Assembly: GCA_003602645.1 (NCBI GenBank)
Contig: QQSI01000040.1
Location: forward strand, 4,152-68,151
DNA length: 64,000 bases
Reading direction: 5' to 3'
Origin: Candidatus Poseidoniales archaeon
GTDB taxonomy: Archaea > Thermoplasmatota > Poseidoniia > Poseidoniales > Poseidoniaceae
Position numbers and translations under genes: made by a program. The notes under the pieces were generated by a model. The model was not told where the DNA came from, ran no database searches, and saw nothing but the letters and a program-made list of their open reading frames with translations. How positions within the stretch are numbered: the stretch's first letter is position 1; every line of letters starts with the position of its first letter. Of this stretch, positions 252 to 52,584 are shown piece by piece.

Positions 252-1052
252 ATGCCCTCAACACGCCCCTCGTTTGATGACGCATTTGGTGGCCGTTACC
301 TTTTGGTCGAACCGGGAACCTATCAAATGGGTGATGGTGCTTCTCGTGGGAATAAGAATGAGCGTCCAGCTCACAAAGTGGACATCGACCAACCTTTCTT
401 CTTTGGCGAACGTCCAGTCACTCAGGCTCACTGGCAGGCGATTATGGAGACCAATCCCTCAAAATTTCAAGAGGGTTGGGCTGCGGGTTTGAGGCCAGTT
501 GAAAACGTTTCATGGAATGATGTTCATGTGTTTCTCGCCCGTTTGAATTCCACAGAACAAGAAACCGTTCGACTCGGGTTTACCGGATCATGGCGCCTGC
601 CATCCGAATCGGAATGGGAATATGTGGCTCGTGCGGGTACGGAGACTCGTTGGGCCTTTGGCGATCGAGATTCTGAGCTCAATGACTATGGTTGGCATGC
701 TGGCAATGCAGGAGCAACAACACGAGAAGTCGGGCAAAAGAAAGCAAATCCTTGGGGTTTTCTTGACATGTACGGTCAAACCGGTGAGTGGTGTCAAGAT
801 GATTACAGCAAAAATTATGAGAATCACGATGGCTCACAGTCTCCTCAAATATCAACAGGAGGCGAACGCAAGGTGCACCGAGGGGGCTCTTGGTTCACTG
901 AATCGGATTCCACCCGAAGCAGGGCACGCGCATCCGCAACTAGGACCACACGTAGCGATGGGATAGGGTTTAGGCTCGTTTGGGCGCCCCAAAAGGCCAA
1001 TGTAGAACCTGAAGTTCCCCATAGCAATGACGACCCTGTATCACAACCCTAG
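252..1052 (+). CDS. Formylglycine-generating-enzyme (FGE/SUMF1)-family domain protein
   Basis: Motifs typical of FGE-sulfatase domain: RPAHKVDIDQPFFFGERPVTQAHW, RLPSESEWEYVARAG, NPWGFLDMYGQTGEWCQDDY, HRGGSWF, GFRLVWAP. Track start 243 is GTG; first ATG at 252. Confidence 0.8.
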   Translation: MPSTRPSFDDAFGGRYLLVEPGTYQMGDGASRGNKNERPAHKVDIDQPFFFGERPVTQAHWQAIMETNPSKFQEGWAAGLRPVENVSWNDVHVFLARLNSTEQETVRLGFTGSWRLPSESEWEYVARAGTETRWAFGDRDSELNDYGWHAGNAGATTREVGQKKANPWGFLDMYGQTGEWCQDDYSKNYENHDGSQSPQISTGGERKVHRGGSWFTESDSTRSRARASATRTTRSDGIGFRLVWAPQKANVEPEVPHSNDDPVSQP

Positions 1053-1374
1053 GTGCTCCAAATCACGTTCTGCACTTGCGATGTGCCAAGCTTCAGATCA
1101 AGATGTTAATGTTCGATTGTACCTCAATGAACCGCTAACAATAGAGGAGTTGAACGGTATCCTATCACGTCTTAAGGGTCCGGTTTCCAAGATTGTACGC
1201 ACAAAGGATACGAAGTTCAAACTTGTAGATTCAACCATGTTGAACCTCGAGGAGGCCGATTCTATTGCTGAATTCCTCTCTCTCCATGGACATCTTATGG
1301 AACGTCCTTTGCTCGATGATGGCACAACTGCCATCATAGGTCGGCCAGTGGAGCATCTGGATCAACTTCTGTGA
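1027..1374 (+). CDS. arsC: ArsC/Spx-family protein (glutaredoxin-type arsenate reductase-like)
   Basis: N-terminus MTTLYHNPRCSKSRSAL matches the ArsC YHNPxCxxSR active-site motif; length 115 aa; 26-nt overlap with the upstream FGE gene. Confidence 0.8.
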   Translation: MTTLYHNPRCSKSRSALAMCQASDQDVNVRLYLNEPLTIEELNGILSRLKGPVSKIVRTKDTKFKLVDSTMLNLEEADSIAEFLSLHGHLMERPLLDDGTTAIIGRPVEHLDQLL

Positions 1375-1876
1375 ACTCCCCATCGCCCTCAATTGGCTCT
1401 GAATCAATCGTAAATTCATGACCTAAGTCACCTAATGTTTGGTGCGGTGGCACTTCACCTGGTTGGATGCACCACTTTTGATTGAATGCCTCGTTCAATG
1501 TCGTCATTAAGTTTCGACGTTTCAGCGCATCGATGCCAGCAGCGGTTCGATCGACGACGGGTGCAATCTCCTCTTGGAACGCAGCATTCATGTGTTCACA
1601 CACTTCCTCGAATGTTCGTTGACCATTGGACAACTCCCAAAGCATACTGTTCATTTGATCAAGAGGCCTTCGAACTTCCCTTGGCGCCCTGAATATGCGC
1701 GCCAAAAAACGTTCAAATTTTGAGAACTTTTTTGGGATCCTCAGGATCACCTTTCGCCCAGTCACGCCGGGTACATCCGGATGTTTTGAAGCCTCACCAT
1801 AGCGCCCCCACCACACGGGGACACGGCACGGATATGTCCCTGAATAGGTATGCTTTCCTTTGTCAGCAACTTCCAT
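1334..1876 (-). CDS. PqqD-like (RiPP recognition element-like) protein with acidic C-terminal tail
   Basis: Central region VILRIP...LDQMNSMLWELSNGQRTFEEVCEHMNAAFQEE...VVDRTAAGIDALKRRNLM resembles the PqqD/RRE signature (W-x-l-x-dG-x-rT-x-eI ... D-x-x-x-Fl-x-x-L); ATG at 1876; 208-nt untranslated gap upstream. Confidence 0.45.
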   Translation of the reverse strand: MEVADKGKHTYSGTYPCRVPVWWGRYGEASKHPDVPGVTGRKVILRIPKKFSKFERFLARIFRAPREVRRPLDQMNSMLWELSNGQRTFEEVCEHMNAAFQEEIAPVVDRTAAGIDALKRRNLMTTLNEAFNQKWCIQPGEVPPHQTLGDLGHEFTIDSEPIEGDGEFTEVDPDAPLADL

Positions 1877-2084
1877 ATTATCACCTCAAAATTCCAACAA
1901 CGTCCAAACCAACAAGGTCAACATCGATGCAACACCGAGCAAGGCCGATAGTCGTGTGGCCTCGACCCGTTCGGAGAAGTTTCGCAAAAACCACGTTGTG
2001 ACACCAAACACCATCACCAACACCCAAAGTGCATACCAGGATGCAGGATATGTGGTCATGTGCCTCGCTGGTGCGGTTCATGTA

Positions 2085-5000
2085 TCATGGTTGTCCTTGA
2101 TTTCTGTCAAGGTATTGCTGACCATAATGCACCCATTGTTCCATTGTCCAACCTGTGGGCAAGCCACCTTCGGGTACAGGTGGATGGGATGATTCGGTTG
2201 ATTGTTCGTGTTCAACTGGAGCTAAGGTCGCCTGCACATCAGGGATAGAGGCCGGTGGTCCGCTTGAGGCTGGCGGTCCAATTTGAACATCTTCTGGGAT
2301 TTCCTTTTCCAAGGTGAAGTCATCTTCATCATCTGAACGGGATCGCAAAAGGAGCACCATGAGGAGCGAGAAGGCAAGCAAAACCGCAATCCCGCCTGCG
2401 ACCACTTCAACCGAAGCACTTACGTCATCCACTGGGCGTTCTTCAAACTGGTATACCTGTGCGCCCTCCCAAGCTATTTCGCCGTCATGTGAAGCGATTA
2501 TGAATGTGATTTTCCCTTCCAATTGACCGCTAAGTCTGTGAAGCGTGCATGGGACATCTTGCAATTGAGGAGTGATATGTCCTGCACCAAACGTGAGATT
2601 TTGTCCATCCGCATCCATCAAGACACCATTGCATACGAGTTGCCATCCATCGGGGATTTGGGCTAGGAAAAGCATGTGTTCTGTTTGGCTTGAAACACTC
2701 GTCATGTTGACATAGAGTGGCACACCAGTCCCAGTGGCATGACTCATGGTATTCGGGACGCTAAGTTCTGCTTCGACGTGGCGTTGTTGATCGACAACGA
2801 TTAACGCCTCATGTTCCAATTCGTAAGGTTGCATTTCTGCATTCATGCCAGCAATAACTTGGAATGTAACGACAATTCTTGTGTTAAGAATCATGTCTTT
2901 GGGGAGAATCAGGTCGACTGTGAGAAGGGTGGATTGGTTTGCCAATAAAGTGATTGTCAGTGGTTCGTTCACAGCTTTTGTACTGCTGCTTAAACCGGTA
3001 GAAAAGAAGGCGACCATATCGGGTACGGGTGGAGAAGCAGATACACTTGCCAAGACGATGATTCCATCATCTGCTGCGTTACCAATATTGGTCAATGTAG
3101 CATTAATGCTGACCGTACCTCCAACAGTTGCCGATGTGGATTCAAATCCCCCTTCCAGTGAAGGTATTCGAACTGACGCCGTGATCGTATCAAAGGTTAC
3201 AATATTGTCTTGGGGTGTCAAATCCTCGAGGCCAAGGGCGTTTACGGCACTGATTGTGACGGTGTGGATTTCACTGGCTGCCTCTTCGCTTGGTACTTGG
3301 ACCCATAATTCTACGGTGGCGTTGTTCTCTAAATCATAAGGTGCAGAGAGTGAAATGGTTCCGTTATGCTGTGATCCATCCACTGTGATCCATGTGCTCC
3401 AGGCCATTGGGAGGTCAATTGTGGCGACGCTAGCCTCGATGGGCCCATTTCCATTATTGACCACTTCCAAGAGGATACGATTGGCAGTACCTGGTCGTAA
3501 TTTTGCAGGCGATTCTAAGAGTTCAATAGAGAGGTCGCTGATCGTTCGTACCACGATTGAATCAAAATCATCACCCGCGATGGTCATTCCACTTCGTTCA
3601 GAGGTAATTTGCGGGGTAATCGTTGGTGCTTTGTCACCGGCTTGGCCAGTTTCAGGTGCGGTTATTTTTGCTGTGAATGTGGTAGTGGCACCCGGATTGA
3701 TGACTGCATTGGGGCGCGTTGGCTGTTCAATGGTCCATAGCGATGAAGGATCATGAAGGATATTCATTGAAAAAATATCTTGACGAGAGGCATTATTCCA
3801 GATTGTAAATTCAACGGTTTTGGTTTCACCAGCATCGATCATCCAGTCCCTTGATGCTTGGTTATGGGTCATACCAACCTCGGCTTCGCTGATCATTGAT
3901 GCGGCAATATCAATGACTAACCCATGGGATTTAGCTGAATTATTTTGTGATTGGGCAAGCATGGTGAACGATACCACTGTGTCGGGAGTGGCTGTTGATG
4001 GAACTGTCATTGTTAGGCCAACCATCACCGGTGTGTCTGGCCGAACGAGGATTGATTCAGATTGAGTCCACGACAATTGAACCATCCATTGCTCTGGTAA
4101 ACTAAATTGATCTAGGGAGAGATCAAAAACATCGGTTGCGTCTCCGATGTTCCTTACCTCAACCTCAAACGGGCATGTGTAGCCGGGCGGGCATGCCGGG
4201 CGTGTTTCTGGTTGGATGACCAATGGTTCACGGTCCGGTAACACTTGGAATTGAACGGGTAATGTCGTGTTGATCGATTGATATTGACTTGATGTTCCTA
4301 TGAATGTCATTTGTTCGAATCCGGTCGTTGCGTTTTCATCCGGCTTAATTTTTACATCAATGGTTTTGCTTTCACCCGGGGCAAGCAACACCCCGGTTTG
4401 TTCGTTGATTGATACACCTGTTTGGTGAGCAAAATACACCTCCCAACCGCTCGGCAATTCATCGACAGAAGGAAGCACATAATCTGAAATGTTTCCATCA
4501 TTGGTTAAACTCACGCTCACCGTTCCCCATTCATTTGGTAGGGAACCCATTGTGGACACACCTGAGGACGAAAGCGCATATTCGATGGGCTTGACTTTTT
4601 GATCATACACAATGACAATGTCATCCAACCAAAAACCCACATCATTGACAGTTGCGTCGGTCGTAAGGATGAACCTAAATTTCGTTGAGGGTGAAAATCC
4701 ACTTTGTGGTGCGGGTATCAACGGTGATGATGTGCCTTGATTGTTGACAGAAAATGTTTGCCATGAGGCACCATCGATGAAGACTTGGTCGATGGTTCCC
4801 GAGATTGTAGCAAGTTCTGTGCTTGTTCCTGCGTTGTTTTGTACGTAGACTTTCAATTCATCACCGGGTTGGGAACTCCCAGTGTAAAAGAAGGAGAGCC
4901 CATTGGTCTGAAGCGGGGCCATCACCGCATCGGACATGTCGAAGGCAGGCGTTTCAAGAACACTTGTCGTTGATGCAGAATACGATGATGCTTCACCGTT

Positions 5001-5691: not shown

Positions 5692-6555
5692 TCATTCATT
5701 TTCCGAAGTTGATTCACGCCCTAGAGCATTTTCTATATCGTCTTCGGACTGTTTGAGTTTGACAGCATCTCGCTTCTCCTTTGCATTGGCTGCCCAATAC
5801 ACAGTAAAAGATGGGATAAGGACCATCGAGAAACACCCGGCAACGGCAGCGAGCGCCCACAAAAATTCAGTCGCAGCATCAACAGAAAACGGTTCTATGG
5901 TTGCGAATTCTTCATTCACCGTGGTGATGCTCATCGCAGGGGCTGTCGTTCGGTTGCCTCGTTCGATGATCTCGACCCTAATGAGCGAGGGTGAGTGCTC
6001 ATATTCAATGGCCTGTTCAGCCTTTACTTGCGCATCTTCAATGGTCTGGGCGTACACCGTACCGTTCGAACGACGCGCTGGGTCTGTGCTCGTTAGGGCA
6101 TTGATCCGTACATCGCCTCCATCCTCGGCAATGTAGGAGTGGGAGGTGTTCTTCTGGCAAGATTCTCTACAGCTAAACCCATCGGCATCCTCAGAACCCA
6201 AGAGTGGGTGACTGAACAAACCAGCGCCGTTAATCAAACGGACCTCGGCACCATTCGATACTTCTGTTGCGGTCAAATTAACCCACGTCAAATTTGCTCC
6301 ATTTGCCGGGACTGACCATGTCCAGGTTGTTGTGTTTTGATCGCCTTGGTAGATTCTGGTTGGTTCAATTTCCTGATGAAGGGTGGTGTTGGTATCGGTC
6401 TCGTAGAGGTAATAGGAAGGGGAGATCGTAGCACCGTAGACGGCGTACGAGAGCATGAAAATAAGTGTAAAGGAGAGCCCTAACAGGGTTCGTAGCAGGT
6501 TCGGGTTTTGAGCCAAAGCCTTCCTCATCGGGTTTAGGACGGACACGCCCTTCAT
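5692..6555 (-). CDS. Membrane protein with N- and C-terminal TM helices flanking an extracellular domain (hypothetical)
   Basis: TM LLGLSFTLIFMLSYAVYGA near N-terminus and LWALAAVAGCFSMVLIPSFTVYWAA near C-terminus; Asn/Thr-rich middle; first gene of an apparent operon with the giant surface protein (26-nt overlap); ATG at 6555. Confidence 0.55.
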   Translation of the reverse strand: MKGVSVLNPMRKALAQNPNLLRTLLGLSFTLIFMLSYAVYGATISPSYYLYETDTNTTLHQEIEPTRIYQGDQNTTTWTWSVPANGANLTWVNLTATEVSNGAEVRLINGAGLFSHPLLGSEDADGFSCRESCQKNTSHSYIAEDGGDVRINALTSTDPARRSNGTVYAQTIEDAQVKAEQAIEYEHSPSLIRVEIIERGNRTTAPAMSITTVNEEFATIEPFSVDAATEFLWALAAVAGCFSMVLIPSFTVYWAANAKEKRDAVKLKQSEDDIENALGRESTSENE

Positions 6556-9302: not shown

Positions 9303-9752
9303 TCAACCGTGCCAAGAAGCAACGCTCTTTGGCGTTTCCCGAACGTGCATGGCGACCAAACGTAACCTGTTTCCATAGGCTGATTTGATGTGTGGCTCAA
9401 CTTGCTCGAAAGCCCACTTTGCGAGATTTTCTGCAGTCGGAACAAATGGTACCACGACTGTTCTGTGATCTGAGTCCATCATTTCGAGGGCTGCACGGGC
9501 TTGTTGATCGTGCTCGTACACCACAAAGGCATGGTCCACCACATCATGGACATAAACAGTAAGAATTTCACTCACATCTGAGAAATCCATCAACATCCCC
9601 TCTTCTGAGACACCATGTTCTTGAACAACATCGCCTTCAATTTCTGCTTCAAAGCGGTAGCGATGGCCGTGCATGTGGCGGCATTTGCTCTTGTGGTTTG
9701 GCACTCGGTGGCCAGTGTCAGTCTCAATGTATCTTCGTATTCGTGTGGTCAT
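9303..9752 (-). CDS. queD: 6-carboxy-5,6,7,8-tetrahydropterin synthase
   Basis: CRHMHGHRYRFEAEIEGD and HGHxY-type motifs of the QueD/PTPS family; ATGA overlap with the upstream queC. Confidence 0.85.
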   Translation of the reverse strand: MTTRIRRYIETDTGHRVPNHKSKCRHMHGHRYRFEAEIEGDVVQEHGVSEEGMLMDFSDVSEILTVYVHDVVDHAFVVYEHDQQARAALEMMDSDHRTVVVPFVPTAENLAKWAFEQVEPHIKSAYGNRLRLVAMHVRETPKSVASWHG

Positions 9753-10903
9753 TGTTCCAACTCCTCAAACTCTAACGAGGCTGAATTGATACAGTATCTC
9801 ATTCCGCCGTGTTCTCTTGGTCCATCGTTGAAAATATGTCCAAGATGTGCGTCGCATTGAGAACATCGAACTTCTGTTCGAATCATGCCATGCGTGCGAT
9901 CTTCAATCTGATGAATGGACGCCCTTGCATGCTCACTATGGAAGGATGGCCATCCGCAACCTGAATCAAATTTCATGGCTGATGTGAACAGGTGATGACC
10001 GCAACAAATGCAATTGTAGTTTCCACTTCTTTTCTCATTCCAATACGCGCCTGTAAACGCCCTTTCAGTGCCACTTTCTCTCGTGACATGGTATTGCAAT
10101 TGAGTTAATTTTTCCTTGTAGTATGCATCTTTGTGCTTTTGTTCTGTTTCTAAAGCAGCAGCCAAAACAATCTCCCACGGTTCAATGTATTCAATTGGAT
10201 CCACCAAATCAAGTGCGTTAAAGGCAAGAATTCGCTCCACGTCAGAACCGCTTCGCCCTGAACTTCTGCCATCCTGATCGGGGTTGTACGATGTGATGGT
10301 GTTTTCAAAAACTCGGTCGAAATTTAAACCAATTTTGTCACATGAAGCCAAAGCGTCTTTCAAAATGGTCACTTTATCGCCGTCGATGTATGGTAAGTGG
10401 AAGGATACGGTATGGCTGTCCCAGTTTCCAACTGCAAAAGCGTGTTCAAGGGCATGATAAAATTCTGGACGGCAATCGGGGTAGATGGCATGATCGCCTG
10501 AATGCACTCCTAAGGCAATTTCGACATTCGCCTTTTCTCGCTTGGCCACTGAAAGGGCGTATCCGTAGAGAATTGATGCAAAAATAGCGTTTCTATTTGG
10601 AACGACAGTGGATTTCATTTGTTCTTCTTCGTAGTGGCCTTCAGGAACCTTGATGCCTTCATTGATCAAGGACGATTCGAACAAGGTCATCGCTGAAGTT
10701 AAATCGACAATGTGGTGTTCAACGTAGAATCCTTTGTCCTGCAAGTATGCAATGTTGTTTGATGCTCTGGTCAACTCAACGCTGTGCTTTTGGCCGTAAT
10801 TATAGGAAATACAGCTTACATTTTTCCCCTCAGCCAAGGCGTTCAAGAGCAAAGAAGTAGAGTCCATCCCACCTGAAAGTGCCATGACAGTATGCTCAGC
10901 CAT
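9749..10903 (-). CDS. queC: Fusion protein: 7-cyano-7-deazaguanine synthase (QueC) N-terminal domain + methionine-R-sulfoxide reductase (MsrB) C-terminal domain
   Basis: N-terminal ALSGGMDSTSLL, VPNRNAIFASILYGYA and YPDCRPEF are QueC signatures; C-terminal NCICCGHHLFTSAMKFDSGCGWPSF...HGMIRTEVRCSQCDAHLGHIFNDGP...RYCINSASL is a full MsrB/SelR domain with its CxxC...CxxC zinc site; single uninterrupted ORF; ATG at 10903 overlaps the queE stop. Confidence 0.85.
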   Translation of the reverse strand: MAEHTVMALSGGMDSTSLLLNALAEGKNVSCISYNYGQKHSVELTRASNNIAYLQDKGFYVEHHIVDLTSAMTLFESSLINEGIKVPEGHYEEEQMKSTVVPNRNAIFASILYGYALSVAKREKANVEIALGVHSGDHAIYPDCRPEFYHALEHAFAVGNWDSHTVSFHLPYIDGDKVTILKDALASCDKIGLNFDRVFENTITSYNPDQDGRSSGRSGSDVERILAFNALDLVDPIEYIEPWEIVLAAALETEQKHKDAYYKEKLTQLQYHVTRESGTERAFTGAYWNEKRSGNYNCICCGHHLFTSAMKFDSGCGWPSFHSEHARASIHQIEDRTHGMIRTEVRCSQCDAHLGHIFNDGPREHGGMRYCINSASLEFEELEQ

Positions 10904-11565
10904 CAATCAACACCCATCCATTTGTGTGTTTGGAGGCTTAGGCGCCATTGTGGATTTTCTTTGACCATTGCTTCTGTTTCAGCGAAATTTTTTCCGTTCC
11001 ACTCTACAGATTCTAATTCCATGTAACACGGTTGGAGGAAATGGTGTTTGAACCCTTGTCGCAATTCTTCGTACATCGATAGATCTTGACCTATATACAC
11101 ACACTTCAATTCGTCACCTGTACGTTGACGCAATTTCACTTCTGGATACATTTGATCTTTAGGTGACACACATATCCAATCCAAGAGTCCATCAGGGATT
11201 TCAATGGTTCCATTTGTTTCAACAGATAATGAGTACCCCCTTGCCTTGAGCAAACGATGCAACGGCCAAAGGTTCTGTAACATGGGTTCTCCACCAGTGA
11301 AGATGATTCGCTTACAATCAAACTTTGATAGTTCCCCAAGCAAGTCAATCGCATTCATAGTATTGAATGTTAGAAAATCTGTGTCGCACCATTCGCAACG
11401 GAGGTTACAATTTCCAAAACGAACGAAAACATGAGGAATCCCTGCGTGGTAACCTTCACCTTGAACTGAATGAAACACTTCGACGATTGGATACTCTGCA
11501 GCCAAATCGGTTGGATCATCAACGGGCGTGTCACCGGCACGAACACAGGAGTCGTTAACGGTCAT
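10903..11565 (-). CDS. queE: 7-carboxy-7-deazaguanine synthase (radical SAM)
   Basis: VFHSVQGEGYHAGIPHVFVRFGNCNLRCEWCDTDF matches the QueE CxxxCxxC-variant cluster and surrounding consensus. Confidence 0.85.
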   Translation of the reverse strand: MTVNDSCVRAGDTPVDDPTDLAAEYPIVEVFHSVQGEGYHAGIPHVFVRFGNCNLRCEWCDTDFLTFNTMNAIDLLGELSKFDCKRIIFTGGEPMLQNLWPLHRLLKARGYSLSVETNGTIEIPDGLLDWICVSPKDQMYPEVKLRQRTGDELKCVYIGQDLSMYEELRQGFKHHFLQPCYMELESVEWNGKNFAETEAMVKENPQWRLSLQTHKWMGVD

Positions 11566-11574
11566 ATTCTCACC

Positions 11575-12144
11575 TCAAAGTGGACGTGAATGAATCAATT
11601 GCATGAGTTCTTGCCTTGCTTCTGGTCGTTCAAAAAACACCCCTCGCATGGCCGATGTGGTCATGATTGAATTTTGCTTTTTGACCCCTCTGCATCGCAT
11701 ACATCCATGCTTCGCTTCAATAATGACGGCAGCACCCAACGGTGCTAGATGAGATTCTAAATCATCAGCAACGCCCTTCGTGATACGTTCCTGATTTTGC
11801 AAGCGTTGAGCATGGAGGTCCACAATCCGTGCTAATTTACTGATCCCCACAATCCGCTCAACTGGGATGTACGCAACGTGAGCACGCCCAGTGAATGGCT
11901 GCAGGTGATGCTCACAAGTGGAATGAAATTCAATATCCCTCAGAAGAACAATTCCATCGTAACCCTCTCCATTGAAGGTTGAATCAAGAAGTTCAGCGGC
12001 ATCCATTTGGTAACCACCAAAAATTTCATCCCATGAATCAATCACGCGTTTTGGTGTTTTTGCTAGCCCTTCACGATTTGGTTCAGGTTCAAGGTAGCCA
12101 AGGAGGGTATGCACTGCCTGTTCTGCTTCGTCTCGTGTCACCAT
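11575..12144 (-). CDS. folE: GTP cyclohydrolase I (FolE type)
   Basis: GIVLLRDIEFHSTCEHHLQPFTGRAHVAYIP...IVGISKLARIVDLHAQRLQNQERIT matches FolE active-site region (CEHH, zinc-binding Cys/His); ATG at 12144 (track start 12150 is TTG). Confidence 0.85.
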   Translation of the reverse strand: MVTRDEAEQAVHTLLGYLEPEPNREGLAKTPKRVIDSWDEIFGGYQMDAAELLDSTFNGEGYDGIVLLRDIEFHSTCEHHLQPFTGRAHVAYIPVERIVGISKLARIVDLHAQRLQNQERITKGVADDLESHLAPLGAAVIIEAKHGCMRCRGVKKQNSIMTTSAMRGVFFERPEARQELMQLIHSRPL

Positions 12145-12146
12145 CG

Positions 12147-12317
12147 TCAATCGCCTCCACGCCCATGCCTTGCGTCAATCTCATCCAGTTGGTCTAGCAA
12201 TTTTCTGCACGCCGTTCGAACTGCATCGGCAAGACTGACAAATTTGTGCTCGTCTCCGACATGCTTACGGAGATCTTCAACGAGCTCAGCAGGCATGTCC
12301 AGGGAGATTTTGGGCAT
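12147..12317 (-). CDS. Ribbon-helix-helix (CopG-like) small DNA-binding protein
   Basis: MPKISLDMPAELVEDLRKHVGDEHKFVSLADAVRTACRKLL has the RHH beta-strand/helix pattern; stop lies 2 nt before the folE ATG (operon head). Confidence 0.5.
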   Translation of the reverse strand: MPKISLDMPAELVEDLRKHVGDEHKFVSLADAVRTACRKLLDQLDEIDARHGRGGD

Positions 12318-23718: not shown

Positions 23719-25605
23719 TCACTCCACGAACATGTCTTCCTGGTAGCCCGTGATGATATCCCCTGTACCATCTTCCTCGATTGTCACGGTTTCGTCTTCG
23801 TCATCGAACTCTATGATTGTTCCAAAGACCTCCTCGTCCTCAAGTGTAAGACCGATGTGTGAGCCAATATCGATTTCTCCTTCCCCTTCATCATCCTCAT
23901 CTTCCTCAGGTTCATCTGACTCGTCATGAGATTCATCATCCAACTCTTCATCTTCGAAATCCTCTTCGAGAGCCTCTTCCATTTCTTCTTCGAGGTCCCC
24001 ATCATCATCATTATCTTCAGATTCGGACGAAGCATCTGCTTGATCGTCTTGGACTTCCTTCATTGCCTTAGCGCGTGCACGCCAGCTAGGCATGAGCGCT
24101 AGATGCATGTAAAGTGAACCAGCTAATCCTGCTGCGCCAAGTACCATAAACAAAATACCGTCCCAATAGAAACCAGCAGGCATCGAACTTGCTTCACCAC
24201 TTAGGGGCGTTAACGAGTTCTTACAGTCGCCTTCCTGAATTGCTGGATCACAAGGGTAAGAATCACCTTCGGCAAGACCCGCAGGAGGGAGTAAATTGCC
24301 TTTGGTCTCTAGCTCAATTGGGCCGCCAGTTCCATCGACAATGACACCGAATCCATTCACGACCCACACGGCAATGAAAAGGCCAAATGCTAAGTGAATC
24401 AACGGCCATACATATTCGTTCCATTGCTTCCCCATCATGCGCTTTTGCATATCAGTTGGGAAGGGTTTGGTTGGTTTGCTGATGACAGCTCTTTCATCCG
24501 TTGCTTCATCGGCATCTGCCAAATTTTCTAAAGCTGTGATGAATTCTATCATGTCCACCGTTCGATCGTTGTCATCATCAACTTCAGACAGGAATTCTTC
24601 GATATCCTTGTGACCGATTTCATCATCAAAGAGCTTGTTCAATTCGTTCATTAGTTCGACAACATCGACGCGCCCATTGGCATCTCTGTCAATGCTCTTG
24701 AAGAATTGAGCTGGCGAGGTTTCCATTTCATCCATGGCATCAGCGATTTTGCGAATGAGCGAAACCTCCTCGATGCTTTCTTCTTCTGAAGGATCTTCAT
24801 CGGACGCCTCATCTTCGTCCATTGATTCTTCGCCGTTTTCCTCTTCTGAATCCAATGTTTCCTCTTCGACCACCTCTTCGTGTTCTGATTCAGAATCTTC
24901 AGATTCGTCATCATCCTGGGAATCTTGGATTTCCTCTTCATCAAGGTTTGATTCTGTTTGAACTTCTTCGTCAGGTTCGCCTTCATCCTCTGTTTCAATT
25001 TCCTCTTCTGGATCATCATCCACTTGGATTTCGGGATCGGTTTCCACCTCATCGTCTGAGTCATTGTCTTCTTCGTTTTCCGAATCTTCTTCCATTGCAT
25101 CCTCATCTTCAGAGGTTGTTGAATGATCCATTTTTTCGTCTTCTGGCAAGTCATCTCCGGTGATGGTTTTATGCAACTCAGCAAGGTCAATCCTTCCATC
25201 TCCGTCAGCATCGATTGTCTCAATGAGGCGCTCAACTTGAGATGGTGGCAAATCTGCTAGATTGAGGCTCAACAGTCCTGACTTCAATTCACTTGAGTCG
25301 ATTTGACCATCGCCATCCTTGTCAAATTTATTGAACAGCATCGGAATTGTAATCCCTGTTGTTGCCAACCAATTGCGCAGCACATCAACGACGTCGTCGG
25401 CGATAAAAACTGTACCACAGTGGCTACATTTTGTGGAATCTAAAGGCACGAGGCCACCGCATGCACCGCACTCTCCGAGGGCTTCATCGGATACACCGGA
25501 AAAAGAAATATTACATTCAGGACATTTGGTTGAATCGAGGGGAATTACTGCTCTGCAAGCACCACATTCTCCTGTAGCAACTTCTTCAGTCTTGTCTTCG
25601 GACAT
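23719..25605 (-). CDS. Large membrane protein with two zinc ribbons, four EF-hand Ca-binding loops, long poly-acidic (D/E) regions and two TM helices
   Basis: CGACRAVIPLDSTKCPECN and CGACGGLVPLDSTKCSHCG ribbons; DKDGDGQIDSSEL, DADGDGRIDLAEL, DRDANGRVDVVEL, DDDNDRTVDMIEF EF-hand loops; >200 aa D/E-rich; TM pair WPLIHLAFGLFIAVWVV / ILFMVLGAAGLAGSLYMHLAL. Confidence 0.75.
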   Translation of the reverse strand: MSEDKTEEVATGECGACRAVIPLDSTKCPECNISFSGVSDEALGECGACGGLVPLDSTKCSHCGTVFIADDVVDVLRNWLATTGITIPMLFNKFDKDGDGQIDSSELKSGLLSLNLADLPPSQVERLIETIDADGDGRIDLAELHKTITGDDLPEDEKMDHSTTSEDEDAMEEDSENEEDNDSDDEVETDPEIQVDDDPEEEIETEDEGEPDEEVQTESNLDEEEIQDSQDDDESEDSESEHEEVVEEETLDSEEENGEESMDEDEASDEDPSEEESIEEVSLIRKIADAMDEMETSPAQFFKSIDRDANGRVDVVELMNELNKLFDDEIGHKDIEEFLSEVDDDNDRTVDMIEFITALENLADADEATDERAVISKPTKPFPTDMQKRMMGKQWNEYVWPLIHLAFGLFIAVWVVNGFGVIVDGTGGPIELETKGNLLPPAGLAEGDSYPCDPAIQEGDCKNSLTPLSGEASSMPAGFYWDGILFMVLGAAGLAGSLYMHLALMPSWRARAKAMKEVQDDQADASSESEDNDDDGDLEEEMEEALEEDFEDEELDDESHDESDEPEEDEDDEGEGEIDIGSHIGLTLEDEEVFGTIIEFDDEDETVTIEEDGTGDIITGYQEDMFVE

Positions 25606-25676
25606 GGGCACACCTAATCCACCGACTACAACAACGGATATAATGATTCATAGTCTTTCAACGGTTACCCATACCA

Positions 25677-26567: not shown

Positions 26568-28118
26568 TCATCGAGGAATACGACCGTTTTCCGCTTCAAT
26601 CCGTGCTAACCATGCTCCATCTGACAATGCAGTGGCGATGTTGATGAGTTCTCTACTTGTGCTGCGATCACCAGTGAGGGGCTTTGCTAGCGTGCGCACG
26701 CGTTGCTTCAGACTTGCAACATATGTGGAAGGCTCAAGCGACTCAAATTCCAATGCTTCGCATGCAACCAACAGTTCACAGGCCAATACTTCTGAGAATC
26801 GTTGTGTGGCTTGAAGCAGGTTCCATGCGGCGGTAGCACCCATGCTGACATGGTCTTCTTGTCCAGCCGAAGTACTGGTGGAAAAGGCGGCTCGCGGACT
26901 TGCATGTCCATGGAGTTCCGCCAGGGATGCTCCGGCCACATACTGGACAATCATCAAACCAGATTCCAACCCCGAGTTCTTTGCCAAAAAAGCAGGCAAT
27001 TCACTGCGCGCTGGGTCGAGCATTTGGTCAATCCTACGTTCAGAAATTGAGCCGAGTTCAAACAAGGCAGCAGACATGGAATCTGCTGTTAATGCGATCA
27101 CCTCTCCATGAAAATTCCCTTGTGAAATGACTTCGTGCGGGCCCGGGTTCTTTGGGTCGGGGAAAATAAGGGGATTGTCGGTGGCGCTGTTCAATTCAAT
27201 CGTAATGGTTTCTAGCATGGAACTGTATTTTTGCAAGACGGCTCCATGAACTTGAGGGGCACATCGAAATGAATACGCATCTTGGACTCGTTCACAATTG
27301 GCGTGTGAGGCAAGAATTTGAGAATTCATCATGAAGGTCCGAATTCTCTTGGCAACAAGGCTTTGTCCAGGATGTGGTCTTGCATCGTGTACACGTGGGT
27401 CCGAGGGTTGAACACTTGCTTTTCTGGCCTCCATCGATGTGCAAAGGATGAGGTCTGCGAGTGGGAGCAGTGAAGAGAGTTTTCGCTCGGCAAGGGTCAT
27501 GAAGGCCAACATTTGACTTGTCCCATTGATCAATGATAATCCGTCCTTAGCACCCAATCGAACACCTATGAGTCCGTGTTCTCTGAGCACAGCCTCGGTG
27601 GGTGTTGGCGCTCCATCTTGGTCGAGAACATAGCCTTCCCCGAGCAATGCTAGCGCCATGTGAGAGAGTGGTGCTAAATCTCCACTTGCACCAAGACTTC
27701 CAATTCGCGGCACATGAGGAATGATGTCCTTATTGAGAAAATCAACGAGTTGCTCCACAACCTTTGGATGGACGCCTGAGTGGCCTTTGACAAGGGAATT
27801 TATTCGAACAGCCATCATCGCGCGAACGGCATGTTTTGGCATTGGTTCACCGAGGCCAGTGGCGTGTGAACGAACTAAATTGGTTTGCAATTGGGCCAAA
27901 TCATCGGGAGAGATTCGTTCATGAACCAAGGCACCAAATCCTGTATTGATGCCGTAAACCGTTTCCCCACGGCTCAATATTCCATCCACAACAGAGCGAG
28001 CAGCGTGTACATTTTGCCATGCATCTTCTGAAACAGCTACATCGGCATGGTTTGATGCGATCCGCTCAACTTCAGCGGGAGTAAGGGTTGTGCCATCAAA
28101 GTGAATTGTGTTTCTCAT
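26568..28118 (-). CDS. hutH: Histidine ammonia-lyase
   Basis: GSLGASGDLAPLSHMALALLGEG contains the Ala-Ser-Gly MIO-forming triad; aromatic ammonia-lyase family length; ATGA overlap with hutU. Confidence 0.9.
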   Translation of the reverse strand: MRNTIHFDGTTLTPAEVERIASNHADVAVSEDAWQNVHAARSVVDGILSRGETVYGINTGFGALVHERISPDDLAQLQTNLVRSHATGLGEPMPKHAVRAMMAVRINSLVKGHSGVHPKVVEQLVDFLNKDIIPHVPRIGSLGASGDLAPLSHMALALLGEGYVLDQDGAPTPTEAVLREHGLIGVRLGAKDGLSLINGTSQMLAFMTLAERKLSSLLPLADLILCTSMEARKASVQPSDPRVHDARPHPGQSLVAKRIRTFMMNSQILASHANCERVQDAYSFRCAPQVHGAVLQKYSSMLETITIELNSATDNPLIFPDPKNPGPHEVISQGNFHGEVIALTADSMSAALFELGSISERRIDQMLDPARSELPAFLAKNSGLESGLMIVQYVAGASLAELHGHASPRAAFSTSTSAGQEDHVSMGATAAWNLLQATQRFSEVLACELLVACEALEFESLEPSTYVASLKQRVRTLAKPLTGDRSTSRELINIATALSDGAWLARIEAENGRIPR

Positions 28119-30208
28119 GGTTCATCACCGTCTGGAAAAAGAGAATCGAGGAGTTGAGAATCTGTCGAGTGCGGAAGTGTGATGTTGAGCCTTTTCTCAG
28201 CCTTCATTGCCCTTTTTATGGCGAATTTTGCGCCATCATTACGAGCCCAAGCCCTTCTTGCCACACCATTGTTGACGTCCCAATGAAGCATTGATTGAAG
28301 CTTTTCCTCACACTCATTGCTTCCATCAAGTAACATACCAAACCCACCGTTCATTACTTGGCCCCAACCTACACCTCCTCCATTGTGAAGACTGACCCAA
28401 GTTGCGCCTCGGAAAGCATCACCGACAAAATTCTGAACAGCCATGTCTGCGGTCCACATGGATCCGTCTCGGATGTTTGCAGTTTCTCGATAAGGACTGT
28501 CCGTTCCTGAAACATCATGATGGTCGCGACCTAACACAACGGGGCCAGAAAGTTCGCCGTTTCGAATGGCTTGATTCATCGCAGAAGCGATTTTCCTCCG
28601 GCCTTCATCATCTGCATAGAGAATGCGTGCTTGGGAACCAACCACCATTTGATTTTGGCCTGCCTCCTTAATCCACCGAATGTTGTCCCTCATTTGTTGT
28701 GTGATTTCTGAAGGTGATGTATCCATCATGGATTCAAGCACTTCCATTGCAATCTGATCCGTCTTTTTCAGATCATCTGGATCGCCCGAACAACACACCC
28801 ATCGATAAGGACCAAACCCATAATCGAAACACATTGGTCCCATGATATCTTCAACGTAACTTGGATACCTAAAACTTCCATCACTGTTGAGCACGTCAGC
28901 CCCAGCTCTACTAGCTTCAAGCAAGAAGGCATTCCCATAATCCCAGAAATACATGCCTTGTTCTGACATGTGATTGATAGCATCGGCGTGTCGCACAAGG
29001 GTTTCACGGACTTTATTCTTGAACAATTCAGGATTGTTAGAAAGCATTTCAGCGGCTTCGGCGTAAGGCATTCCTACGGGGAAATATCCTCCTTGGAATG
29101 GATTGTGAAGGCTTGTTTGATCTGATCCAAGGTCAACTCGAACATTTCTTTCTACCAGTCGTTCCCAAAGTGCGACGATGTTGCCAACGTAGCCAATGGA
29201 TATTGCTTGACGGTTGGCAGCGCATTCAACCATCCGATCTATGGCAACATCGATGTCCTCGGTGACCTCGGTTAACCAGCCCTGATGGTGACGCTTGTAT
29301 GCTGCATGTGCGTTGGATTCCGCCACAATACACGACGCACCGGCAATGACCGCTGCCTTTGCTTGTGCACCTGACATGCCTCCGAGACCTGATGTGACGA
29401 AGGTAACACCTTCCAGACCCGACTCGCCAGATAGACCCAAATGCGCTCTTGCAGCGTTAAGGAGTGTGATGGTCGTACCATGGACAATACCTTGTGGGCC
29501 AATGTACATGTAAGACCCTGCCGTCATCTGACCATATTGTGTGACGCCGAGTGCGTTGAGGCGTTCGTAATTCTCAGGTGTCGACTCACTAGGAATCATC
29601 ATTCCATTGGTGACAATCACTCGCGGTGCATTGATATTGGAAGGAAAAAGCCCCATTGGATGGCCAGAATACATCACCAGCGTTTGATCATCGTTCATGA
29701 TTGAAAGGTACTGCATGGTCAACCTGTATTGAGCCCAATTTTGGAACACCGAACCGTTCCCACCATAGGTGATGAGTTCATGTGGGAATTGAGCAACTGC
29801 AGGGTCCAAATTATTCTGAATCATGAGCATGATTGATGCGGCATGAATCGATTTCGCGGGGTAGGCATCGATTGGATGGGCTTTCATTTCGTATTCAGTG
29901 GGACGGAACCTCCACATGATAATACGCCCAAATGTGTTCAATTCATCTGCAAACTCAGGTCCAAGAATAGCGTGGTGTTTTTCATCGAAGTAACGCAACG
30001 CATTTTCCAGTGCTAATTTTTTTTCTTGACGGGAAAGAACTTGACGTCTTTTAGGGGCCATATCGACGTTTGGATCAATGCCCGGGTGAGCAGGGAGGGT
30101 GTCGGGGATTCCCTCTGCTATATGCGCTCTTAACCCACTCACATCAGCGCCCATGTTTGGTTCAAACCACGCCTTGTCCTTGAGCGTTCGTATTGGGCTT
30201 TTTCGCAT
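28115..30208 (-). CDS. hutU: Urocanate hydratase (long, eukaryote-like form)
   Basis: Full-length urocanase similarity incl. GLGGMSGAQAKAAVIAGASCIVAE NAD-binding region and GTTITLLNAARAHLG; ~698 aa; ATG at 30208. Confidence 0.9.
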   Translation of the reverse strand: MRKSPIRTLKDKAWFEPNMGADVSGLRAHIAEGIPDTLPAHPGIDPNVDMAPKRRQVLSRQEKKLALENALRYFDEKHHAILGPEFADELNTFGRIIMWRFRPTEYEMKAHPIDAYPAKSIHAASIMLMIQNNLDPAVAQFPHELITYGGNGSVFQNWAQYRLTMQYLSIMNDDQTLVMYSGHPMGLFPSNINAPRVIVTNGMMIPSESTPENYERLNALGVTQYGQMTAGSYMYIGPQGIVHGTTITLLNAARAHLGLSGESGLEGVTFVTSGLGGMSGAQAKAAVIAGASCIVAESNAHAAYKRHHQGWLTEVTEDIDVAIDRMVECAANRQAISIGYVGNIVALWERLVERNVRVDLGSDQTSLHNPFQGGYFPVGMPYAEAAEMLSNNPELFKNKVRETLVRHADAINHMSEQGMYFWDYGNAFLLEASRAGADVLNSDGSFRYPSYVEDIMGPMCFDYGFGPYRWVCCSGDPDDLKKTDQIAMEVLESMMDTSPSEITQQMRDNIRWIKEAGQNQMVVGSQARILYADDEGRRKIASAMNQAIRNGELSGPVVLGRDHHDVSGTDSPYRETANIRDGSMWTADMAVQNFVGDAFRGATWVSLHNGGGVGWGQVMNGGFGMLLDGSNECEEKLQSMLHWDVNNGVARRAWARNDGAKFAIKRAMKAEKRLNITLPHSTDSQLLDSLFPDGDEP

Positions 30209-30212
30209 CAAA

Positions 30213-31454
30213 TCATGCGCTGCGTGGGTTTGGTCGCCACAAAGAGAAGAATGCCCCTGAGATCATCATCATCACGGAGAAGATCAAAAATCCATTTTTG
30301 AGTGTAAAATATTGTTCCTCCAACAGATAACCCGCTGTGGCACTGGATAACGAGAACGCTAATGACATCAAGAGCATGTCCATCGAAAACACTCGGCCGC
30401 GTACTTCATCCTCAACCCATTTCTGAGTCAGAATGGTTGACAACACCCAATTTGCTCCGGAAGCTGCATGAGCGAGCATCACAAGTGAGATCGTCAAGAA
30501 AAGACTCACGCCAAGCGTCCATCCGACGAGAAAATAGAACGCACCAGAAAGCATCACCAACAAACCGACCATAACAGGCCAGCGCTCTTCATTGGTGAGC
30601 AAGGCTCTTGCTGCAATTGGCCCAATTCCTGTGCCTACTCCGCGGGCGAAGAAAAAGATACCAAACCCTAGAGCCATACCAAAGCCGTCAATGTCTGAAC
30701 CTGCCACAACAAGGAATACGCCGGCCAAACCTCCACCTGCTATGTTCCATGAAGATTTTGCGAAGACGATGCGCAGAAGTCTTTTTTCACCGATAATACG
30801 TTTCCAACCTTTCTTGATGTTGGTAAAAGCAGTGGCCAGTAGTGGTCCTTTCATTTCATTTCCAATGGTCTGGGGGATGCTCAGATTTCTAAGCAGATAT
30901 GCCCCAAAGGCGAATGTGACTGCATCGATGATGAAGGCTGCATCTGTGCCCCAAATTTCGACCACAATGCCTCCAAGCATTGCACCTAAGCAGAGGGCTG
31001 TTGACCAACTCGCCGCATCTAATGCATTGGCTGTAGCGAGATGTTCAGCAGGAACAATGTTAGGCAATGCTGCCCGTTCTGCCGTCACATACATCCCATG
31101 CATAATCATCATCGCTCCAGTGAGAACGTAGATCCAAACAATGTGATTTTTTCCATCGATGAGCAGGAAACTTAACGCTAAGCCAACCTGGAGAATGTTT
31201 GTCCAAACCATAATCGTTTTTCGATTTAAGCGATCGGCCAAAAGACCACCAAATGGTTGGAATGCAGCAAAACACAGCATCCTCATCGTGAACAGAAGGC
31301 CGAGGAGAAATTCAGATTCGGTGTATTCGAAAATCAGAAGGAAAAGGGCAATCGTGTTGAACCACTCCCCTAGCATAGAGATGACTGAAGCAGACCATAA
31401 GCGCCTGAATGCGTGGTTGGTCCTGATCAACTCCAGGTAACCGATTTGAGTCAT
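30213..31454 (-). CDS. MFS transporter
   Basis: 12 predicted TM helices, MFS loop motif GLLADRLNRK between TM2 and TM3; ATGA overlap with upstream gene. Confidence 0.8.
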   Translation of the reverse strand: MTQIGYLELIRTNHAFRRLWSASVISMLGEWFNTIALFLLIFEYTESEFLLGLLFTMRMLCFAAFQPFGGLLADRLNRKTIMVWTNILQVGLALSFLLIDGKNHIVWIYVLTGAMMIMHGMYVTAERAALPNIVPAEHLATANALDAASWSTALCLGAMLGGIVVEIWGTDAAFIIDAVTFAFGAYLLRNLSIPQTIGNEMKGPLLATAFTNIKKGWKRIIGEKRLLRIVFAKSSWNIAGGGLAGVFLVVAGSDIDGFGMALGFGIFFFARGVGTGIGPIAARALLTNEERWPVMVGLLVMLSGAFYFLVGWTLGVSLFLTISLVMLAHAASGANWVLSTILTQKWVEDEVRGRVFSMDMLLMSLAFSLSSATAGYLLEEQYFTLKNGFLIFSVMMMISGAFFSLWRPNPRSA

Positions 31455-33748: not shown

Positions 33749-33784
33749 GACCAAGCCTCATCCATAACGGAAAGACTGGGGTTC

Positions 33785-34582
33785 TCAAGGGTTGTCCTTC
33801 ATTGCCGGTTGTATGTACCCAATTCCTATGCTGCGGTGGGGTTTCACAAAACTGTAAATCCTCATTCCTAAGGCACGAGCCGTCTCTGCTGCAAGGGTTG
33901 AGCAAGCACCAACGCAAGCAATGGTTCCAATTCCAGCCCGGGCCGATTTAGCAACGATGTCCCACCCACATCGGCCAGACAGAAGTAAAACTAGGTTGTT
34001 CATATTTTGGCCCAAAGAAACGCATGTGCCGACTGCTTTGTCCACAGCATTGTGTCGTCCTATATCCTCGCACACAATCGAATCTTTCTCCCCAATCCGA
34101 AATAATCCCGCAGCATGCATGCCGCCGGTTTTTGAAAAACCATGTTGTTTTGCTTTCATAATTTCAAAGGACTGATTGAGCCAACTCAATTCGATGGTTC
34201 TATGACTTCCAGTATAGATTGGTAAGTTGCTTAGGAGATCTTCAACTCCTGGTGAATTGCATGCTCCACATGAAGTTGATACGATTTGCTTTGGTCTTGA
34301 TTTACCAATTTCATTTACGGTAAAATCAATGGCTTGAACGGTATAACCATCGCCTGATACCATAACTTCTATCTCGGCTGCAGGAGAAAGGTCATAGCCT
34401 TCAGTGGTGCAATGCCCAATGAGCAATTCAGGAAGTTGTGTTGGCGTGGCAAGCAACGTAGTGAACACGCCATCTTGGTCCGATAATTTGACTACAGTTT
34501 CCGTCGCAAGGTGATCGGAGGTCAATGCATACCCATCATGTGTCATTGTATGTACGCCAATTTGTTTGAATAGATCATTCAT
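33785..34582 (-). CDS. fdhD: FdhD sulfurtransferase (formate dehydrogenase accessory protein)
   Basis: Family-wide similarity incl. catalytic STSCGACN loop and C-terminal RCGWDIVAKSARAGIGTIACVGACSTLAAETA. Confidence 0.8.
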   Translation of the reverse strand: MNDLFKQIGVHTMTHDGYALTSDHLATETVVKLSDQDGVFTTLLATPTQLPELLIGHCTTEGYDLSPAAEIEVMVSGDGYTVQAIDFTVNEIGKSRPKQIVSTSCGACNSPGVEDLLSNLPIYTGSHRTIELSWLNQSFEIMKAKQHGFSKTGGMHAAGLFRIGEKDSIVCEDIGRHNAVDKAVGTCVSLGQNMNNLVLLLSGRCGWDIVAKSARAGIGTIACVGACSTLAAETARALGMRIYSFVKPHRSIGIGYIQPAMKDNP

Positions 34583-36988: not shown

Positions 36989-37042
36989 TTTTATTGCAAA
37001 TTGCAGTGAACATTGAAGGTCCGAGTAGGCTGGACAACAGAC

Positions 37043-38089: not shown

Positions 38090-38715
38090 ATTGGATGGAT
38101 CTCACTCTAGAAGAGTTCCAGAACCATCTGGCGTCAGACGATCCAACTCCGGGGGGTGGCACCGCAGCAGCAATTGCCTTGGGTCAAGCGGCAGCACTCA
38201 CCGAAATGGTTGCTGGCCTAACATTGGGTAGAGAAAAATGGCAATCTGGGTGGGTTGCTGCTGAAACTGCTCGTGCGGTAGCACGACGGGTCATGGTGCG
38301 TTCAGGTGAACTCGCCAAAGAAGACAGTCAGGCCTTCGACTCTGTGGTTGCCGGATTTAAAATGCCAAAATCAACGGAGGAAGAAAAGGATGCTCGTCGG
38401 CAATCCATTCGGCTTGCGACCTTGCATGCTGCCGAGGTACCATTAGCGACATCCCAGCATGGAATGGAATTGCTGAATGTCCTTTCAAGTTTAGCAACCC
38501 ATGGCAATGCAAATGCTGCTTCTGACGTAGGAGTGGCCTCCCTTCTTGCCAGTGCGGCAGTCAAGGGTGCACTTTTCAACGTGGACATCAATGTAGCAGC
38601 ACTTCCGGTTGATATGGCCCAGCATGTCATCGAACAGTGCGCTGGGATGCGTGAAGAATGCAGCAGAATCTCACGCCTCGTCATGCATGCGGTTCATGAG
38701 AGGATTAATTCTTGA
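38086..38715 (+). CDS. Formiminotetrahydrofolate cyclodeaminase (FtcD C-terminal domain as separate gene)
   Basis: LTLEEFQNHLASDDPTPGGGTAAAIALGQAAALTEMVAGLT matches the cyclodeaminase family; GTG 38086 overlaps upstream stop (GTGA), alternative ATG 38095. Confidence 0.8.
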   Translation: MNWMDLTLEEFQNHLASDDPTPGGGTAAAIALGQAAALTEMVAGLTLGREKWQSGWVAAETARAVARRVMVRSGELAKEDSQAFDSVVAGFKMPKSTEEEKDARRQSIRLATLHAAEVPLATSQHGMELLNVLSSLATHGNANAASDVGVASLLASAAVKGALFNVDINVAALPVDMAQHVIEQCAGMREECSRISRLVMHAVHERINS

Positions 38716-48177: not shown

Positions 48178-48312
48178 GATGCCTCGACTGGCGCGCCCTT
48201 GATGAACCAACCGCTAATTTTTCCTGATTTCTTCTTTTCCTGCATTGGTGATGCATTCACCGATTTGTTTTCAGTGTTGATTGATTCATCTGGGTCCAAG
48301 GGGAGTCGTGGT

Positions 48313-52529: not shown

Positions 52530-52584
52530 ACATACCCCTATCACGATGCGTTCTTGAAGATGTGGATGAATCCATAGCGTAACA

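Follow-up and report, generated by a model that had tools for sequence, protein, structure and literature searches.

Both halves of the protein described here are familiar from other multidomain enzymes: methionine sulfoxide reductase B (MsrB) occurs as a module of MsrAB and PilB, and the preQ0 synthase QueC is fused to a second domain in Gat-QueC. Canonical QueC carries the signature SGGxDS, YxQxHxxE, VPxRN, and YPDC, together with an essential tyrosine next to the first zinc ligand, as derived from mutagenesis in E. coli (PMC13082051). The gene under study, queC::msrB, lies in a 64,000-nucleotide stretch of a Candidatus Poseidoniales archaeon genome (GCA_003602645.1, contig QQSI01000040.1, positions 4,152 to 68,151 of the forward strand; hereafter, the window) and encodes both enzymes in a single polypeptide. 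Set beside the known MsrB and QueC fusions, it looks like a lineage-specific merger of neighboring genes. We consider it probable that two adjacent operon genes merged in Marine Group II (MGII; Poseidoniales) archaea and gave rise to a bifunctional enzyme, each half of which does its usual job and works without functional coupling to the other. Our searches of the literature on QueC-MsrB fusions, Poseidoniales methionine sulfoxide reductases, and MGII archaeosine found no description of this architecture, in keeping with a first-pass annotation of the same DNA, to which the architecture was unfamiliar.

One reading frame for QueC and MsrB

The open reading frame (ORF) at 9749-10906 on the minus strand is open throughout, with 385 codons counted from a TTG and 384 from the ATG at 10903. 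The ATG is the likely start, because most homologues are 384 amino acids (aa) long and gene callers use it on other contigs; residues are numbered here from the TTG at 10906, one residue before the ATG. This uninterrupted frame carries both Pfam domains, i.e., QueC (PF06508; E 3e-42, 144.9 bits versus a cut-off of 22) and SelR/MsrB (PF01641, aa 267 to 381; E 1.5e-50, 170.4 bits versus a cut-off of 24.9), so that the single-ORF fusion reported by the first-pass annotation stands, and every motif it had quoted for the two domains is present (SGGMDS at residue 11, VPNRN at 102, YPDC at 142, CICC at 299, GCGWP at 316, CSQC at 348, HLGH at 354, and RYCIN at 370). Likewise, the C-terminal half scores 178.5 against a cut-off of 113.05 with the NCBIfam equivalog-domain model for MsrB (TIGR00357). 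Besides QueC and SelR, the Pfam scan returned solely a weak, sub-threshold Yippee-Mis18 match overlapping the MsrB domain and found no class-II glutamine amidotransferase (GATase) domain. An MsrA domain was also not found in the fusion, the NCBIfam MsrA/B models matching via the MsrB part alone and far below their cut-offs.

Gene callers recover the very same 384-aa protein from at least 23 independent metagenome contigs (ENA, JGI, and Logan), these being the contigs read among the 42 blocks that an index lists for it, and it always sits in this operon. Because the exact protein recurs in independent assemblies, we rejected an assembly artefact as its source. That a frameshift or a lost stop codon arising in sequencing or assembly had joined two separate genes might be suggested by the separate queC and msrB genes of sister lineages, yet such an error is next to inconceivable given these contigs, at least 120 two-domain clusters, and fused ORFs in 27 GTDB species representatives. 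Two separate genes in other assemblies, which the first-pass annotation had named as grounds for rejecting the fusion, do occur, but in sister lineages (11 loci) and not in the window's own lineage.

In a collection of 5.8 billion proteins, the best 120 clusters (66 to 93% identity, 331 to 404 aa) all contain both Pfam domains, and wherever the source is named it is Candidatus Poseidoniaceae or Thalassarchaeaceae, i.e., MGII archaea, as the suggested archaeal origin would have it. When 1.84 billion representatives at 50% identity were scanned with HMMER, a single full-length QueC plus MsrB protein emerged, an MGII cluster (P0121), accompanied by a few fragments that cross the junction (P0130 and P0137 among them); the other matches in two stretches were, every one, an intein-containing QueC or a tandem MsrB. 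None of the 80 closest viral QueC relatives contains MsrB. Among the retrieved sequences, the QueC-MsrB architecture is confined to Poseidoniales.

Fusion sequences of this kind are already public with one half annotated: NCBI names them "MsrB" only, and JGI names them "7-cyano-7-deazaguanine synthase" (QueC) only. The NCBI name is probably explained by a QueC half that scores under the cut-off of the QueC equivalog model TIGR00364. With single-half annotation, automated reconstructions of these archaea, among the most abundant in the surface ocean, would therefore miss one function or the other, and the archaeosine precursor pathway of MGII can seem to lack queC.

Two further observations came from these searches. 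A complete MGII-type folE-queE-queC::msrB-queD/spoU locus occurs at 998-4510 of NZFX01000056.1 (L014), a contig labelled "Phycisphaerae bacterium MED703" that is probably a mis-binned archaeal contig. In addition, seven QueC homologues (P0123, P0124, P0140, P0145, P0155, P0157, and P0172) appear to contain an intein-like insertion of ~170 to 420 aa between ..SGDH and [S/C]IYPDC, at the catalytic YPDC, and P0146 has a comparable insertion within its CxxCxxC zinc motif; judged by eye, the insertions start with CF[TS]..DT or CLTGDT and end with ..HN.

Operon states and the origin of the fusion

On the minus strand, the operon reads folE-queE-queC::msrB-queD and is tightly packed. The queE stop overlaps the ATG of the fusion (TGATG), the stop of the fusion overlaps the queD start (ATGA), and the operon is translationally coupled. 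Linkage of folE, queE, queC, and queD with overlapping stops and starts is kept in more than 40 Poseidoniales loci.

We compared 80 loci from GTDB species-representative genomes by means of tblastn, ORF extraction, and alignment, and distinguished four operon states among Poseidoniales: (i) a long-junction fusion as in the window (..ALETEQKHKDAYYKEKLTQLQYHVT), found in 11 loci (L001-L007, L022, L033, L054, and L056) in addition to the window; (ii) a short-junction fusion, 14 residues shorter (..ALKAQ-LRFHVM), in 16 loci; (iii) queC and msrB as separate genes in different frames, in 11 loci; and (iv) queD directly after queC, without msrB, in 9 loci, one of which is labelled MGIII. Where the two genes are separate, their stops and starts overlap in a manner typical of translational coupling (ATGA in L028, L037, and L046; TTGA in L036; TAATG in L034). 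One short-junction locus (L019) has an in-frame TAG within queC (6262-6264; HYE*EQMK), which marks a pseudogene or stems from a sequencing error.

At the long junction, the QueC tail (..E-x-x-H-K) continues without a break into the N-terminal helix of MsrB (D-x-x-[YW]-[KR]-x-x-L-[ST]-x-L-Q-Y-x-V-T). Both elements are seen in the separate genes of state iii, and what is lost at the junction is the QueC stop codon plus the first ~8 to 12 MsrB codons. No new linker was introduced: aa 232 to 259 correspond to the C-terminal helix of this QueC clade, and stand-alone QueCs of Poseidoniales, Pirellulaceae, and viruses align through aa ~255 to 261.

Trees were built by neighbor joining with bootstrap. 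In the MsrB tree, most short-junction MsrBs form one clade (81% bootstrap) marked by a 4-residue deletion, L024 and L031 form a separate clade (100%), and long-junction and separate MsrBs are intermixed. In a tree of concatenated FolE, QueE, QueC, and QueD (778 columns), the four operon states are interleaved. From these sequence relationships we infer that queC and msrB were ancestrally adjacent and that two or more fusions and several losses came later, a number of events that stays provisional because the deep nodes of the trees are weakly supported. Mechanistically, adjacent, translationally coupled genes of a folE-queE-queC-msrB-queD operon would have lost the stop/start boundary between queC and msrB, yielding the bifunctional enzyme. 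The locus keeps the steps of a gene fusion side by side, i.e., no msrB, separate overlapping genes, and two types of fusion junction, and it offers a clean natural example of operon neighbors that fuse without an implied common pathway, which is a caution for guilt-by-fusion prediction of function.

The zinc-less loop and the probable activities of the two halves

The first-pass annotation had correctly stated that the Cys4 zinc motif of QueC is absent from the fusion and that both CxxC pairs of MsrB are kept. More specifically, the C(x)8CxxCxxC motif of canonical QueC is not found in the fusion, aa 190 to 298 contain no cysteine, and C189 is the sole cysteine of the QueC half after YPDC. Alignment with Cys4-bearing relatives that show C..C-x2-C-x2-C (L059, L063, and the gamma-proteobacterial L067-L080) places the four ligand positions at S206, S216, S219, and D222; S206 is the aligned counterpart of Cys186 in B. 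subtilis QueC (3BL5), and the essential tyrosine next to the first ligand position is retained as Y207. The same residues, with Ser or Thr at S219, fill these positions in all Poseidoniales, whatever the state of their msrB. The resulting cysteine-less loop, with the consensus S..SSG[KRT][ST]G[SA]D[VI]ERILAF, also occurs where no MsrB is attached, namely in the stand-alone QueCs of 11 Poseidoniales loci with a separate msrB, 9 Poseidoniales loci without msrB, and 14 Planctomycetota loci. Consistently, 76 of the 80 closest IMG/VR viral QueCs lack Cys4 (65 with a S..SDYKSASS variant and 11 with an MGII-like variant), and many viral relatives adjoin homologues of folE, queE, or queD.

Judged from these alignments, the zinc loss is a trait of the clade that predates the fusion and does not depend on it. 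The QueC half belongs, with those of many marine viruses and marine Pirellulaceae, to a wider, largely marine and viral clade in which Ser/Ser/Ser-Thr/Asp has taken the place of Cys4. This distribution bears directly on a proposal of the first-pass annotation, according to which the CxxC/CxxC zinc ribbon of MsrB structurally replaces the lost zinc knuckle of QueC, the fusion compensating for the loss. A lost QueC site and a retained MsrB site do meet in one polypeptide, and in the structural model described below the MsrB domain directly follows the C-terminal helix of QueC. Yet the same loop is present in the stand-alone QueCs listed above, its sequence is alike in fused and unfused forms, and the model predicts the former zinc loop with a predicted local distance difference test (pLDDT) score of ~77 to 90. 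Because the identical cysteine-less loop occurs in unfused QueCs, the zinc loss appears independent of the fusion, and the basis for compensation by the MsrB ribbon is therefore removed; we rejected zinc substitution on the distribution of the loop and regard it as very improbable. A zinc-sparing adaptation was also considered as the reason for the cysteine loss and could not be supported, FolE type I, QueD, and MsrB ordinarily being zinc proteins themselves.

Relatives of the zinc-less QueC outside the archaea deserve separate mention. Marine Planctomycetota loci, mainly of Pirellulaceae (L043-L053, L057, L058, L060, and L065; e.g., L049, 5989-6798), encode a zinc-less, long-form QueC with 52 to 59% identity to the archaeal one. 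In the two Pirellulaceae loci scanned (L049 and L045), QueC has no que genes around it; its neighbors are a WYL/WCX regulator and a ComM-like ATPase, which give no hint of its function. This pattern points to exchange of the gene between marine planctomycetes, MGII archaea, and viruses. On IMG/VR contigs classed as viral (L081-L084), QueC is 60 to 62% identical to the window protein and has a zinc-less loop of the MGII type; these contigs may come from viruses of MGII or may be pieces of archaeal DNA wrongly assigned to viruses.

Residue conservation was assessed in 62 aligned fusions, a set that also served for an AlphaFold2 (AF2) model. In the QueC half, SGGMDS (11 to 16), YGQKHSVE (37), VPNRN (102), YPDC (142), and Y207 are invariant. 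In the MsrB half, both zinc CxxC pairs (C299/C302 and C348/C351), the catalytic cysteine C372 (RYCINS), the resolving cysteine C317 (GCGWPSF), H354, H357, R370, and N374 are invariant in all 62; both CxxC pairs are also found in separate-gene and short-junction MsrBs, and the MsrB half is ~50 to 54% identical to characterized MsrBs (~52% to 3cez). The AF2 model of the fusion has a mean pLDDT of 84.2 and a predicted template modelling score (pTM) of 0.74. In this structure prediction, a check that the first-pass annotation had proposed, the predicted MsrB domain matches 3cez with a template modelling (TM) score of 0.88 and a root-mean-square deviation (rmsd) of 1.8 Å over 124 columns, and the predicted QueC domain matches 2pg3 and 3bl5 with TM scores of 0.74 to 0.77. 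A continuous helix (244 to 266) leads into the N-terminal helix of MsrB.

Both halves look active because the non-zinc QueC motifs, the queE and queD neighbors, and all catalytic and zinc-binding MsrB residues are kept and the predicted folds match. The long-form QueC half would still convert 7-carboxy-7-deazaguanine to preQ0, the precursor of archaeosine, with ATP and ammonia; the MsrB half, a zinc-containing, two-cysteine form, would still reduce protein methionine-R-sulfoxide with a thioredoxin-type reductant. On the strength of conserved residues, preQ0 synthesis is most likely the activity of the former, and methionine-R-sulfoxide reduction is most likely that of the latter. We infer both catalytic activities, as well as the zinc independence of the QueC half and the absence of functional coupling between the two enzymes.

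Several points weigh against such a merger of two enzymes that keep working as before. Throughout the order, msrB keeps its place inside the preQ0 operon, and fusion seems to have happened more than once, a persistence and repetition that might stem from selection for a functional link, something a simple merger does not supply. QueC, moreover, is described as zinc-dependent, with the Cys4 motif as a hallmark (PMC13082051), and is treated in the same way elsewhere (PMC13376578); when the four cysteines of the paralogue QatC are mutated, its function drops severely (PMC13639016). With TIGR00364, the QueC half reaches 137.7, just below the cut-off of 150.3. Two other accounts of the protein were considered. 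According to one of them, a coupling that the first-pass annotation had also raised, MsrB is tethered to QueC since its target is QueC or the preQ0 pathway; MsrB might repair oxidized methionines such as M14 (in the SGGMDS PP-loop) or M97, or might let oxidative stress in sunlit surface water modulate preQ0 and archaeosine synthesis. M14 and M97 are indeed invariant in the 62 fusions, in much of Poseidoniales msrB is placed between queC and queD, whether fused or not, the two or more junction types and the interleaved operon states suggest repeated fusion, and the pTM of the modelled two-domain chain is compatible with a defined arrangement of its domains. However, SGGMDS is found in every examined relative that lacks MsrB (Pirellulaceae, gamma-proteobacterial QueCs, and msrB-less Poseidoniales), and nine Poseidoniales species representatives without an operon msrB, having lost it or never had it, have a visibly unchanged QueC. 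Genes that overlap by ATGA can, in addition, plausibly fuse via a small indel, and repeated fusion therefore need not mean selection. We consider functional coupling unlikely.

The other account concerns the QueC half itself, which, being zinc-less, might be no preQ0 synthase: it might go no further than the amide, as would a 7-amido-7-deazaguanine (ADG) synthase of the kind proposed for phage QueC*, might use another substrate, or might have no activity, the fusion then being effectively an MsrB with a repurposed N-terminal domain. Besides the described zinc dependence of QueC and the sub-threshold TIGR00364 score, this account can draw on the largely viral nature of the closest relatives, phages having been proposed to carry QueC* variants (PMC10516641). 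We regard it as improbable, more so than coupling, in view of the invariance of all non-zinc catalytic signature motifs, including residues essential in E. coli, and of a complete folE-queE-queC-queD operon kept across an archaeal order, with this gene as the only queC homologue in the window or the flanks examined; motif replacements of the QatC or LarE type are absent. A merger that left both enzymes at their usual work remains our preferred reading.

Two further possibilities are linked with each other, and we give them about the same low probability as functional coupling: this QueC clade may be a genuinely zinc-independent preQ0 synthase, and msrB may have been repeatedly recruited and fused to act in cis on QueC or its pathway. 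If this were true, a zinc-independent preQ0 synthase abundant in MGII and marine viruses would overturn the view of QueC as an obligate zinc enzyme, and a cis-acting MsrB would protect deazaguanine and archaeosine synthesis in sunlit water from oxidative stress or let it respond to such stress.

Genomic setting and relation to known systems

The features of the fusion and its operon are collected in Table 1. Beyond queD lies a convergent gene for a SpoU-family methyltransferase, and the remaining window is that of a typical archaeal chromosome, with Kae1, a proteasome-activating nucleotidase, and the primase small subunit. A search of the window found no second copy of msrB or queC, and no other queC was found in the flanks examined; arcTGT, ArcS, and MsrA were likewise absent from the ~40 other window ORFs scanned with Pfam.

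Table 1. Coordinates of the queC::msrB fusion, its parts, and the other genes of the operon in the window
Feature	Position	Strand	Remarks
folE (GTP cyclohydrolase I), first operon gene	11575-12150	-	PF01227, E 7e-67; NF006825, 236 bits, above cut-off
queE (7-carboxy-7-deazaguanine synthase, radical SAM), directly upstream of the fusion	10903-11565	-	TIGR04508 best match, below cut-off
queC::msrB, complete coding sequence of the fusion	9749-10903	-	384 aa; stop codon 9749-9751; TTG at 10906 adds one residue
QueC domain, aa 6-231	10214-10891	-	PF06508; SGGMDS 11-16, YGQKHSVE 37-44, VPNRN 102-106, YPDC 142-145
Former zinc-binding loop, aa 203-225 (TITSYNPDQDGRSSGRSGSDVER)	10232-10300	-	ligand positions now S206/S216/S219/D222; Y207 kept
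C-terminal helical extension of the long-form QueC clade, aa 232-262	10121-10213	-	runs into the junction at ~K259/D260 (nucleotides ~10129/10130)
MsrB domain (peptide-methionine (R)-S-oxide reductase), aa 263-385	9752-10120	-	PF01641, TIGR00357
queD (6-carboxytetrahydropterin synthase, PTPS family), directly downstream of the fusion	9303-9752	-	PF01242, E 6e-26

Elsewhere in the window, genes for histidine ammonia-lyase, urocanase, and formiminotransferase plus cyclodeaminase, the last two as adjacent genes, make up a histidine-utilization set (26568-30211 and 37013-38715), near which a major facilitator superfamily (MFS) transporter is encoded. A 767-aa molybdopterin oxidoreductase adjoins an FdhD/NarQ-family protein (31451-34582); formate dehydrogenase-like and S-/N-oxide reductase-like enzymes are possible candidates for it. 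Two VitK2_biosynth (MqnA/MqnD-like) genes and a CofH/MqnC-like radical SAM gene (47290-48210, 50500-51306, and 51315-52643) point to a futalosine route to menaquinone, and a 782-aa WD40 beta-propeller protein (48166-50514) is encoded among them. In a 630-aa protein (23719-25611), weak zinc-ribbon-like matches at the N terminus are accompanied by EF-hand calcium-binding motifs, a pairing unusual for an archaeon.

A full preQ0 operon whose QueC lacks the four zinc ligands, kept throughout one archaeal order, and a QueC of this kind common in marine viral contigs, are contrary to the description of the enzyme as zinc-dependent with a hallmark Cys4 motif (PMC13082051). Neither a zinc-less QueC in a preQ0 operon nor a fusion to MsrB is mentioned in PMC13082051, PMC13376578, or PMC13639016, and our literature searches found no paper describing such a clade. 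Zinc-less QueCs are natural test cases for the role of the zinc site, and a clade so abundant in the ocean would be worth a biochemist's attention.

Compared with canonical QueC, the QueC half has the same PP-loop Rossmann fold, the same signature motifs and essential tyrosine, and an operon shared with queD and queE. It differs in lacking the four zinc cysteines, in a C-terminal helix that is ~30 aa longer, in a methionine in place of glutamine in the PP-loop, in an identity of only ~26 to 28%, in its score under the TIGR00364 cut-off, and in its fusion to MsrB. Much closer are the long-form zinc-less QueCs of marine viruses (IMG/VR) and marine Pirellulaceae, which share 45 to 62% identity, the C-terminal helix, and the Cys4 loss. 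In contrast to the window protein, these have no MsrB; most viral copies carry S..SDYKSASS, and the Pirellulaceae copies stand alone by a WYL regulator. The QatC/Cap9 defense proteins have lost YxQxHxxE, VPxRN, and YPDC, have N- and C-terminal extensions, and occur with qatABD or cyclic oligonucleotide-based antiphage signaling system (CBASS) partners (PMC13082051), whereas the window protein keeps the canonical motifs and has folE, queE, and queD as neighbors.

The MsrB half resembles MsrB form 1 (Burkholderia 3CEZ, E. coli 6SYM, and human MSRB3 6Q9V) at ~50 to 54% identity, with TM scores of 0.8 to 0.88 and an rmsd of 1.8 to 1.9 Å, and shares the catalytic and resolving cysteines, the histidine pair, and both CxxC pairs; unlike these enzymes, the fused MsrB is without its own first residues and start codon, and its N-terminal helix is joined to QueC. 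MsrB is likewise one module of a larger protein in MsrAB and in Neisseria PilB (Trx-MsrA-MsrB), and 3E0M, 7E43, 5FA9, and 3HCG are among the structural matches. There, however, the partners (MsrA and thioredoxin) belong to the same repair pathway, whereas here the partner is an unrelated enzyme of nucleobase biosynthesis. Gat-QueC, which functions in archaeosine (G+) synthesis in Crenarchaeota and occurs in phage 9g (PMC10516641), similarly joins a QueC-family domain to a second catalytic domain; its partner, an N-terminal GATase, feeds nitrogen into the same chemistry, whereas in the MGII fusion the partner is C-terminal and chemically unrelated.

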